A stretch of 54,934 bases of DNA from Alphaproteobacteria bacterium (lineage in GTDB: Bacteria; Pseudomonadota; Alphaproteobacteria; Rs-D84), in assembly GCA_017451625.1 (NCBI GenBank), contig JAFTNY010000001.1, positions 1-54,934 on the forward strand, written 5' to 3'. Shown here one piece after another: positions 50,380 through 52,830 of this stretch. The translations under genes and the position numbers were made by a program. The notes under the pieces are model-generated. The model saw only the letters and a program-made list of their open reading frames with translations. It was not told the origin of the DNA and searched no databases. Each line of letters starts with the position of its first letter. The first letter of the stretch is position 1.

Positions 50380-51258
50380 TTATTTAGACAGTTTTTCAAC
50401 CAATTCGAACAATTGTGGGCGACTGGTGAAAGACAATGTTATCTGCCCTGCCCCGCCGCGACGTTCGGTCAATCGGGCCGACACCCCCAGCGCAGATTTG
50501 ATTTTGCTTTCAATATCGCGCACAGTTGCCGCATCAATCGTTTTCTGGACATGCGCACGCGTTGTCTTGGCACGTGGTGCGGATTTTACCAAGGCACCAG
50601 TATCCGCAACAGACAAGTGTTCGGCAATAATTTTATGCGCCAAATCTTCGGGATTTTCCGCCACTGCAATCGTACGCGCATGCGACGCGGACAGTTCGCC
50701 CTGCTCTACCAAATTCTGGACAGAATCAGGCAATGATGTCAGACGCAACATATTACGAATATAACTGTCTGATTTGCCAATCAGACGCGCAACATCTGCC
50801 AATTCATAATCACAACATTCCATCAGATTTTTATAGGCGTTGGCCTCTTCTATTGGATTCAGGTTTTCGCGCTGGACATTTTCAATCAATGCAATTTCAC
50901 GCGCATTACTGTCGTCCAGCGTTTTTACCAAGGCCGGTATTTCATTTAGCCCAGCCAACTTGGACGCACGATAGCGACGTTCACCCGCCACAATTTCATA
51001 TGGATACGGACGGTCCGATACACTGCGCAACAAAATCGGTTGCAACACACCCTTTTCACGAATAGATGCCGCCAAATCTGACAATTCCGCATCAGAAAAT
51101 GTCTTGCGTGGCTGGTCAGGATTCGCACCAATTTGCGCCAATGGAATTTGACGCACAACAACACGTTCGGTTGGTGTTAAAATTGAAATATCTGGAATCG
51201 TGCCACGCGCCGCCTGCAAATCGGCCAAACCACGTCCCAACCCAAATTTATTCGACAT
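50380..51258 (-). CDS. parB: Chromosome partitioning protein ParB
   Basis: GLGRGL, NPDQPRK, GVLQPI, IVAGERRYRA and ENVQRENLNPIEEA. Confidence 0.97.
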   Translation of the reverse strand: MSNKFGLGRGLADLQAARGTIPDISILTPTERVVVRQIPLAQIGANPDQPRKTFSDAELSDLAASIREKGVLQPILLRSVSDRPYPYEIVAGERRYRASKLAGLNEIPALVKTLDDSNAREIALIENVQRENLNPIEEANAYKNLMECCDYELADVARLIGKSDSYIRNMLRLTSLPDSVQNLVEQGELSASHARTIAVAENPEDLAHKIIAEHLSVADTGALVKSAPRAKTTRAHVQKTIDAATVRDIESKIKSALGVSARLTERRGGAGQITLSFTSRPQLFELVEKLSK

Positions 51259-52030
51259 CTGTTATTCCTTTGGTTCGTTGTACAACCTCGGTCGCGACAC
51301 GCAAATACGCCTGCGCCCCCGTTGAATTAAAATCATAGAACAATGCTGGCTTGCCATGGGACGGTGCCTCTGACACGCGAACATTGCGCGGCACAACCGT
51401 CTTGAAAACCAAATCCCCAAACGTTTTGCGAACATCATCGTCAACCGCACGTGTCAGTCCATAACGGCGATCATACATCGTTAACAAAACACCCAGAATT
51501 TCCAAATTTGGATTCCACTGCGACTGAACAGCGGTAATGGTATCTGTTAACTGCTGCACCCCTTCGAGGGCGAAAAATTCACACTGCAACGGAATAATTA
51601 CTGAATCCGCCGTTGTTAGTGCGTTAATTGTTAAATACCCCAACGCTGGCGGACAATCCAGCAGTATATAATCATAATAATCCATCACTGGACGTAATGC
51701 ATCACGCAGGCGAAATTCACGATTTTCCATATCCAGCAAATCAACATCTGCGCCGGCCAAGGCCTGTGATGATGGCAACAGATGCAATCCAGCCACCGCA
51801 GTTGTTAAAATATTATCGGCCACATTTGCCGTCCCCATAATTACGCCATACACACTTTGACGATGGTCCGCACGCACAAAGCCCAAACCGGTTCCTGCAT
51901 TACCCTGTGGATCCAAATCAATCAGCAAAACACGCTGTTTAATTGCCGCCAAAGACGCGCCGATATTTATCGCGGTTGTTGTTTTACCAACACCACCTTT
52001 TTGATTCGCAAACGCTATAACTCGTGCCAT
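51248..52030 (-). CDS. parA: Chromosome partitioning ATPase ParA/Soj
   Basis: ANQKGGVGKTTT, IDLDPQGN, DCPPALG, QCEFFALEG and SEAPSHG. Confidence 0.97.
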   Translation of the reverse strand: MARVIAFANQKGGVGKTTTAINIGASLAAIKQRVLLIDLDPQGNAGTGLGFVRADHRQSVYGVIMGTANVADNILTTAVAGLHLLPSSQALAGADVDLLDMENREFRLRDALRPVMDYYDYILLDCPPALGYLTINALTTADSVIIPLQCEFFALEGVQQLTDTITAVQSQWNPNLEILGVLLTMYDRRYGLTRAVDDDVRKTFGDLVFKTVVPRNVRVSEAPSHGKPALFYDFNSTGAQAYLRVATEVVQRTKGITDVE

Positions 52031-52145
52031 TTCCCCTGTCCATTTCATAAATCTTGTACTATTTTACCTTATAAAAAGCCGACGATTCGGTCAAGAGTTT
52101 ATATTTCACAGCAATAAAATCATTTAAAATCAAAAACTTATCAAC

Positions 52146-52161
52146 AATTTCACATGAAATT
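52146..52161. promoter_or_regulatory. Variant parS-like site 1
   Basis: AATTTCACATGAAATT, compared with canonical TGTTTCACGTGAAACA; lies between rsmG and parA. Confidence 0.7.
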
Positions 52162-52255
52162 AACACAAAATCAACCACCAGAAACAAAAAGCCGGCTTTT
52201 GCCGGCATTTTTGCAATATTTTAAAAATATCAAATATTTTCAACACGTTAACTGT

Positions 52256-52271
52256 AATTTCATGTGAAATT
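52256..52271. promoter_or_regulatory. Variant parS-like site 2
   Basis: AATTTCATGTGAAATT is the exact reverse complement of site 1; it sits within a 20-bp near-palindrome 52254-52273. Confidence 0.7.
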
Positions 52272-52830
52272 ACCGGTCAAAACGCACAGAAACGATAAAA
52301 CCATCACCTGTTTTTGACGGTGTCAGCGTATAATTAAACTTATACCGCTGTTCTGCCAATGCGATTTCACCGGCAATTTCGCGACCTTTTAATAGAAAAA
52401 GCCGGCATTTTGTGTGTGCAACATAATCCATTATTTTGGTAAGCGATGCAAAGGCGCGCGCAGTAAATACAATATTGTCTTTTTTTGCCGGTAAATGCCG
52501 GACATAATCTTCGACACGACCATGGTAAATCGTCAGATTTTCCAAATCCAACGCATCCTTGACCGCCGATAAAAACGCGACCTTTTTGCCAATCGATTCA
52601 ATGCAAACAACATTCCAACCCAAAATCGCCAAAACAACCCCAGGAAATCCGGCACCACTGCCCAGATCCACGACATTAACATCGCGCGGTAAAACATCAG
52701 CCAACTGGGCCGAGTCCGCAAAATGCCGGTTTTCAATATCATTTAACGTACTGGGCGCGACCAAATTCATCCGCCCAGACCATTCGCGCAGCAGTGCCGC
52801 GTATTGTTCAAATTTGACTTTATTGCTCAT
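52270..52830 (-). CDS. rsmG: 16S rRNA m7G527 methyltransferase RsmG/GidB
   Basis: WSGRMNLV, RHFADSAQL, DLGSGAGFPG and FTARAFA; rsmG-parA-parB synteny. Confidence 0.96.
   Translation of the reverse strand: MSNKVKFEQYAALLREWSGRMNLVAPSTLNDIENRHFADSAQLADVLPRDVNVVDLGSGAGFPGVVLAILGWNVVCIESIGKKVAFLSAVKDALDLENLTIYHGRVEDYVRHLPAKKDNIVFTARAFASLTKIMDYVAHTKCRLFLLKGREIAGEIALAEQRYKFNYTLTPSKTGDGFIVSVRFDR

Follow-up and report, generated by a model that had tools for sequence, protein, structure and literature searches.

Few protein-DNA interfaces in bacteria are as well conserved as that between the chromosomal centromere parS and the residues of ParB that recognise it. According to the parts of the published work on which we draw, guanine 1 of each parS half-site is hydrogen-bonded by R173 of ParB in the crystal structure, R173 is invariable among the parS-specific proteins of a 160,000-variant screen and also in ParB orthologues, and parS binding is abolished in Caulobacter ParB without R173; in the same screen, G, C, S or T is accepted at position 201, nearly every residue at 179 and any at 184 (PMC7383237). 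We describe here a parAB locus in which this contact appears to have been given up. It lies in a 54,934-nt (54.9-kb) stretch of DNA from an Alphaproteobacteria bacterium (assembly GCA_017451625.1, contig JAFTNY010000001.1, forward strand), the whole of which is called the window below, and comprises parA, parB and, between parA and the upstream gene rsmG, two identical 16-mers. These 16-mers are probably the chromosomal parS sites of the clade to which the genome belongs, read by a ParB with a remodelled recognition helix. The altered protein and site are a trait of that whole clade, not of one genome: R173 is absent and arginine or lysine is present at position 177 in all 31 clade loci, the variant helix-turn-helix (HTH) and the variant site occur together in every clade locus with enough flank, and this pairing is absent from 137 outgroup loci.

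The clade consists of Candidatus Enterousia and its relatives, small-genome gut Alphaproteobacteria of the order Rs-D84. The closest genome match of the window is Candidatus Enterousia itself, which is placed in this GTDB order among gut Alphaproteobacteria with genomes of less than about 1 Mb (PMC12306168). The clade loci (ParB 51–100% identical) and the outgroup loci were taken from genome and metagenome collections.

The parAB locus and its ParB

The gene order is rsmG-parA-parB, with all three genes on the minus strand, and the same synteny is found in most clade loci. The features on which the comparison turns are the following.

52830 to 52270, minus strand: rsmG (gidB), the upstream neighbour and part of the conserved rsmG-parA-parB arrangement (TIGR00138, 117.1 bits against a cutoff of 99.5).
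52256 to 52271, no strand assigned: distal parS-like site, reading AATTTCACATGAAATT on the minus (gene) strand and overlapping the TAA stop codon of rsmG (52270–52272).
52146 to 52161, no strand assigned: proximal parS-like site, reading AATTTCATGTGAAATT on the minus strand and AATTTCACATGAAATT on the plus strand, and beginning 131 nt upstream of the parA ATG.
52030 to 51248, minus strand: parA, a Walker-type ATPase with KGGVGKTT; its start, MARVIAF, has a GGGGA ribosome-binding site 5' of it.
51258 to 50380, minus strand: parB, 292 aa, with ParB N-terminal domain, HTH and C-terminal domain (TIGR00180, 189.5 bits; cutoff 58.45).
50965 to 50985, minus strand: codons of GERRYRA, residues 92–98, the CTP-binding arginine patch, intact.
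50728 to 50778, minus strand: codons of the recognition helix, GKSDSYIRNMLRLTSLP, residues 161–177, in which D164 corresponds to R173, R168 to A177, M170 to T179 and S175 to A184.
50674 to 50694, minus strand: codons of LSASHAR, residues 189–195, in which S192 corresponds to G201.

The initial annotation of this DNA had pointed to two identical 16-mers in inverted orientation between rsmG and parA, and they are indeed present, at 52146–52161 on the plus strand and as the reverse complement at 52256–52271. The identity of the repeat reaches 17 nt, with arms at 52146–52162 and 52255–52271 that are 92 nt apart.

The window ParB aligns without gaps to Caulobacter ParB (PDB 6T1F; HMMER, E = 2.8e-56), and residues are numbered here as in the literature, which corresponds to the chain index of PDB 6T1F plus 10. 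The alignment bears out the earlier reading of the HTH as D/M/S/S at positions 173, 179, 184 and 201, with a new arginine at 177 and an intact GERRYRA motif; the substitutions relative to the Caulobacter protein are Q162→L, R173→D, A177→R, T179→M, A184→S and G201→S. Along its length the protein displays, in turn, an LGRGL N-terminus, GERRYRA, ENVQRENL, the HTH and the C-terminal domain. Judged by these motifs it is, one respect aside, an ordinary chromosomal ParB: it combines the N-terminal domain with GERRxRA and is encoded in a (rsmG-)parA-parB operon with a Walker-type ParA, but the residue expected to be R173 is D in the window and not arginine in any of the 31 clade loci. Assignment to Noc (TIGR04285) was rejected, given a score of 210.5 bits against a cutoff of 315 and the residues D/M/S/S rather than Q173/K179/K184/R201. 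No second ParB was found in the window.

Given the tolerances measured in the screen, it is D173 together with the new R177 that is remarkable, while S201 is permitted and M179 and S184 are uninformative. The weight that the initial annotation had placed on residues 179 and 184 therefore falls away, as both vary freely in the outgroup as well as in the published screen.

The distribution of the variant protein was followed at several depths. In the 120 closest 90%-identity protein clusters (79–98% identical), E, D, A or V occupies position 173, always accompanied by YIRN. A search of 1.84 billion representatives at 50% clustering, of which the best 150 matches were examined, recovered the variant only among the nearest: the five closest informative representatives (51–72% identical) lack R173 and carry R or K at 177, one further close match is a fragment that diverges before the HTH, and the other 144 have R173, nearly all with A or T at 177 and G at 201. 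When the most distant member (P0125) was itself used as the starting point, the signature was present in all 118 relatives found. Across the clade, residue 173 is unconstrained (E, D, V, I, A, Q or S), and in the 19 clade loci that were tabulated residue 201 is S in 15, T in two, A in one and G in one, residue 162 is hydrophobic, and the contact residues G170, K171, S172, N178 and R204 are invariant. The outgroup has R173 in 137 of 137 loci, A, T, S or N at 177, and G201 in 136, the remaining locus having S201. What sets the clade apart from other ParBs is confined to 173, 201 and R/K177, with 162 a less clear-cut marker. Neighbour joining of the ParB sequences makes the clade monophyletic, with a lineage carrying I173, K177 and G201 (L083) as the first to branch.

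Variant sites and the IHF-like box

The loci were scanned with a pattern that fixes TTTCA..TGAAA only. The 450 kb of DNA from the 31 clade loci yielded 42 sites against 2.4 from shuffles, and the 1.6 Mb from the 137 outgroup loci yielded 160, almost all of them TGTTTCACGTGAAACA. Clade and outgroup part at two places in the half-site. Position 2, which is base 1 of the published half-site and the base contacted by R173, is A in 64 of 84 clade half-sites (76%) and G in 18, against G in 301 of 320 outgroup half-sites; position 8 (base 7) is T in 56 of 84 and C in 28, against C in 298 of 320. The resulting clade consensus, wATTTCAYRTGAAATw, most commonly with the symmetric centre CATATG, deviates from the canonical consensus TGTTNCACGTGAAACA at positions 2, 8, 9 and 15.

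The core of what the initial annotation had proposed about the locus survives this comparison in amended form. Covariation of HTH residues with the motif across relatives, which it had put forward as a check, is found between the 31 clade and 137 outgroup loci, and the motif is conserved upstream of parA, 34 of the 42 clade sites lying 60–370 nt upstream of that gene. A co-diverged ParB-parS pair is thus upheld in its essentials by the clade-wide co-occurrence, by the outgroup loci that are without it and by the fact that the base contacted by R173 is one of the two that changed, although some of the details do not hold. The replacement of outer TG/CA by AA/TT is diagnostic at the second base (G→A), whereas the outermost base is really w, so that the pair is better written wA/Tw. 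Broken central symmetry is a property of the window copies and incidental, since the centre of the clade consensus is symmetric. The inverted orientation of the two copies is likewise real in the window and was rejected as a functional feature, as orientation and centre vary among relatives; the CACATG/CATGTG centre, too, flips its orientation between clade genomes.

The placement of the sites is regular. In all 11 of the loci L001 and L003–L012 a site lies about 900 nt upstream of the parB start, and in 10 of the 11 a second one lies 60–210 nt further up, usually starting from the rsmG stop codon; indeed, most clade loci have a site at the rsmG stop (ccggTAATTTCA...). Outgroup canonical parS occupies the same relative position, often 870–1500 nt upstream of the parB start. 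Some clade sites are found away from promoters, inside or after genes or downstream of parB. At L086:6012, L092:6901, L095:5282 and L084:10455 a parS-like site follows closely on parB, ahead of gpsA or inside it, and in some clade lineages such sites replace or supplement those upstream of parA. TATTTCGCGTGAAATA occurs twice in L084, its CGCGTG centre being unusual.

Within the window, the relaxed core TTTCANNTGAAA occurs twice, against 0.23 from dinucleotide shuffles. Both occurrences are 16-mer palindromes with a TTTCA/TGAAA core clustered beside parAB, as expected of parS, which lies beside parAB or the origin; they deviate from TGTTNCACGTGAAACA at 5 of 16 positions and lack the G at position 2, the C at position 15 and the CACGTG centre of canonical parS. 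Allowing up to two mismatches, no further copy of AATTTCACATGAAATT and no canonical parS were found in the window; the additional 8 kb or so that L001 covers of this scaffold past rsmG contains no more AATTTCACATGAAATT copies at that threshold, and a search of L001 for canonical parS was likewise negative. The segment 31914–31929 (TATTTCACGTGAACGC) contains one perfect variant half-site; it was judged to be probably a chance match, lying inside an open reading frame with a sigma-factor-like ISRERVRQIE motif. Within one mismatch of canonical, only TGTTTCATGTGAAACA in L088 was found among the clade loci (about 63 kb of the scaffold that contains the window, and 12–21 kb around parAB in most of the other clade loci).

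When the flanks of all sites were aligned, conservation proved to extend on the parA side, where YAANNNNTTGATW begins 5 nt after the site and a T-run follows some 9 nt later. Read on the other strand, YAANNNNTTGATW is WATCAANNNNTTR, a consensus for IHF in current literature use. The elements of the window spacer that bear on this and on what follows are listed here.

52250 to 52238, minus strand: distal IHF-like box, TAACGTGTTGAAA, beginning 5 nt after the distal site, with one mismatch to YAANNNNTTGATW.
52140 to 52128, minus strand: proximal IHF-like box, TAAGTTTTTGATT, beginning 5 nt after the proximal site, with no mismatches to YAANNNNTTGATW.
52191 to 52206, no strand assigned: likely rsmG terminator, a G+C-rich hairpin (GCCGGC-AAAA-GCCGGC) with T runs on both strands, between the two sites.
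52066 to 52094, minus strand: putative parA promoter, with a -35 element TTGACC (52094 to 52089), GAATC (52088 to 52084) and a -10-like TAAGGT.

At the fixed +5 offset and with at most one mismatch to the degenerate consensus, the box is found with 27 of the 42 clade sites and with none of 158 outgroup sites; its mean number of mismatches is 1.8 at this offset and 5.5 +/- 0.6 at other offsets. It is also present at sites kilobases from parA (L083 1807 and 4494, L089 5894, L091 1972). The fixed register at most sites suggests a composite, bent partition site made up of the 16-mer and an IHF-like box, the name of the box reflecting its match to the consensus. A reading of the TTGAWW box as a -35 promoter element was rejected, as inspection revealed no consistent -10 element after it. 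Matches to HU or IHF genes were not obtained by regex or tblastn in the window and all loci, a negative that says little, as the search covered parAB neighbourhoods only, with E. coli sequences as the tblastn queries.

Other details of the surroundings may be recorded. The element CTTGACCGAATCG (52083–52095, minus strand), upstream of parA, is kept in 14 of 19 clade loci and resembles a -35 element merging into a GANTC (CcrM-type methylation) site, a form that hints at cell-cycle or methylation control of parAB. A TraG/VirD4-type coupling-protein gene of a type IV secretion system lies a few kilobases from parB (44301–46616, plus strand), a radical-SAM gene (49170–50285, plus strand) is inserted between parB and pal, and the order of neighbours around parAB varies among clade loci. 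The window stops at a gap: a run of N is present in the source scaffold just past its 3' end (L001:6157–6240). An apparent split of gpsA was rejected as a pseudogene, the two called open reading frames being caused by this gap.

Weighing the explanations

We infer that ParB binds the predicted parS sites. If so, the ParB encoded alongside would probably load at the 16-mers as a CTP-dependent clamp and act with ParA, like any chromosomal ParABS. On the protein side the remodelling would consist of the loss of R173, the gain of R or K at 177, one helical turn along the recognition helix, and the change of G201 to S or T; on the site side, of the change from half-sites TGTTTCAC and GTGAAACA to wATTTCAY and RTGAAATw, with A in place of G1 and, mostly, T in place of C7. 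As Caulobacter ParB loses parS binding without R173, some compensation must have evolved in the clade. R/K177 may provide it, either as a new base reader or through a permissive phosphate contact, and S201 may be linked to the replacement of the central C by T. Since 18 of 84 half-sites are still of the G type, the clade ParB can probably accept these as well.

Patterns within the clade, which are raw counts from small samples without phylogenetic correction, offer some hints about how the change came about. The first-branching L083 (G201, K177) has three sites, each composed of one G half and one A half, with mostly C at the centre; in the T201 lineage L085 the site is TATTTCACGTGAAATA (base 1 is A, base 7 is C), from which that of its sister L084, TATTTCGCGTGAAATA, departs by one mismatch; and the S201 crown has mostly T at base 7. 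This series suggests that the loss of R173 with the gain of K/R177 came first, followed by G201→S with the central change. G is found at position 2 in 9 of 16 half-sites of the K177 lineages (L083, L005, L010 and L088, which are scattered in the ParB tree) against 9 of 68 in the R177 lineages. These associations suggest a correspondence of residue 177 with base 1 and of residue 201 with base 7; because the K177 lineages keep G and the R177 lineages use A, residue 177 may have taken over recognition of the outer base. One may go further and see in the clade a natural primary centromere code that does without the R173–G contact, in which 177 reads the outer base, S201 accompanies the central C→T change, parS and an IHF-type bending box form a composite site and the whole is insulated from canonical ParB-parS, reached along a path from L083 through the T201 lineages to the S201 crown. 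This fuller proposal is tentative, and we think it more likely to be wrong than right.

Several points weigh against taking the 16-mers as parS sites of a remodelled ParB. The full-length clade loci L099 and L101 contain only candidates with two mismatches. The co-occurrence of protein and site traces to essentially one evolutionary event, and the large Fisher statistics are therefore not independent evidence. A MarineAlpha5 metagenome-assembled genome (L060, G+C content 0.32) encodes an R173/G201 ParB beside sites with outer bases other than G, CATTTCACGTGAAAGA and AATTTCACGTGAAAAA (L060:6531–6546 and L060:6725–6740), and cautions against supposing that R173 and G are strictly coupled. The search for canonical sites covered parAB neighbourhoods, some of them on short contigs, so that canonical parS may yet lie elsewhere in the genomes, and the organisms of the clade are uncultured. 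Both base changes run from GC to AT, as mutational bias in reduced genomes would give, and since residue 173 is unconstrained and 18 of 84 half-sites keep G, relaxed specificity fits as well as switched specificity.

The last of these points leads to the most serious competitor, according to which recognition has been relaxed and not rewired: AT-biased mutation would have eroded the G:C pairs of parS, ParB would have dropped a contact it did not need while still binding canonical parS at least as well, and there would be neither a new code nor orthogonality. Besides the direction of the base changes and the free variation at 173, it can appeal to the G retained in 18 of 84 half-sites and the central C retained in 28 of 84, to the L088 site one mismatch from canonical and to the degenerate outer bases in L060, where R173 is present at low G+C content. 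The G+C content of the clade is moderate, however (0.37–0.52, median 0.43), and 25 of the 48 outgroup loci below 0.45 hold an exact canonical site, so that low G+C content alone is no explanation. A at position 2 is moreover preferred (76%) and not random, R/K177 was gained in 31 of 31 clade loci and S201 in 15 of the 19 tabulated, the outgroup having neither save for one S201, and the loss of R173 abolishes parS binding in the Caulobacter protein. On these grounds we regard relaxation without rewiring as unlikely, if worth keeping in mind.

It is much less probable that the 16-mers are operators of another protein regulating parAB or rsmG, or some other element, with the true loading sites of ParB elsewhere. 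They do lie in a promoter-bearing intergenic region, and the conserved asymmetric flanking motif points to the possible action of one or more other factors. But the invariant TTTCA..TGAAA core, the 16-bp palindrome and the place beside parAB are hallmarks of parS, outgroup canonical parS sits at the same relative position, the changed base is the very base read by the changed ParB residue, and some sites stand away from promoters; Rfam, for its part, returned no family at gathering threshold, and an RNA element was rejected on the sub-threshold matches, which are driven by the terminator. Hardly credible, finally, is a chance pair of palindromes, or a structure of RNA or terminator type that binds no protein, a reading which can cite the AT-rich region and the 17-nt inverted repeat that the copies form around the terminator hairpin, and is disfavoured by the comparative data, namely the excess of clade sites over expectation (42 against 2.4), their persistence down to 51% ParB identity while the surrounding intergenic sequence diverges, and a relative orientation of the copies that is not conserved, meaning that pairing between them is not selected. 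The reading of the 16-mers as parS sites of a remodelled ParB is thus the one carried into the comparison below.

Relation to known partition systems

With the canonical ParABS (parS TGTTNCACGTGAAACA; Caulobacter crescentus ParB, PDB 6T1F and 6S6H) the clade shares the rsmG-parA-parB synteny, the GERRxRA CTPase motif, the HTH and LGRGL, one or two 16-bp palindromes beside parAB at each locus, built around TTTCA..TGAAA, and the contact residues G170, K171, S172, N178, R181 and R204. It differs in lacking R173, in having R/K177, G201→S/T and a hydrophobic residue in place of Q162, in having mostly A rather than G at base 1 and mostly T rather than C at base 7, and in carrying an IHF-like box on most sites. 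As far as its sequence allows it to be classified, this is a bona fide ParABS that fails one defining canonical feature, the R173–G1 contact, and adds a site-linked box. No earlier description of the variant motif or of such ParB-parS co-evolution was found in the literature searched. The clade could be used to ask whether parS recognition truly fails once R173 is lost and whether an essential centromere can be carried along by AT-biased genome reduction, and, if the pair is insulated from canonical systems, it would add a further orthogonal ParB-parS pair for DNA labelling.

Noc and its binding site (NBS, tATTTCCCGGGAAATa) in Firmicutes, with Q173, K179, K184 and R201, resemble the clade in that base 1 is A and not G after the loss of R173, and the outer six bases of NBS equal those of the clade consensus half-site, TATTTC. 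In the clade, by contrast, base 6 stays A, S and not R occupies 201, neither 179 nor 184 is K, an acidic or aliphatic residue rather than Q stands at 173, and the parAB locus encodes no ParB besides this one, which is not a paralogue. Engineered intermediates between ParB and Noc (QKAG, QTKG and QKKG) switch to hybrid parS/NBS sites (Jalal et al. 2020, PMC7383237). Like the clade proteins they have lost R173 and gained a basic residue on the recognition helix, and the A1/A6 half-site of the clade is a combination of parS and NBS, the portions of that study used here not stating which hybrid those variants prefer. The clade differs in that its basic residue is at 177, a position outside that study, in having no Q173 save in L094 and in the change at base 7, which that work did not vary. 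The best study of a specificity change, from ParB to Noc, thus relied on a paralogue and on engineered intermediates, and the solution of the clade, an arginine or lysine shifted by one helical turn to 177, was beyond the reach of its four-position mutational scan.

In the parS of plasmids P1 and P7, a ParB-binding motif adjoins an embedded IHF-type bending site at fixed spacing; the P1 ParB, with its box A and box B motifs, is of another subfamily. The likeness of the clade sites lies in an IHF-like box at fixed spacing, the assignment to IHF being solely by consensus match. We know of no chromosomal parS with an IHF-like box; should the box prove genuine, the design would be an uncommon one for a chromosomal centromere. 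Natural non-canonical pairs that avoid cross-talk occur in Vibrio cholerae (ParB2-parS2) and on chromosomes 2 and 3 of Burkholderia. Those are additional, plasmid-derived pairs that exist alongside a canonical chromosomal pair, whereas in the Enterousia clade it is the primary chromosomal system that appears to have changed, which would make the clade a natural case of such a pair on the move, living intermediates included.

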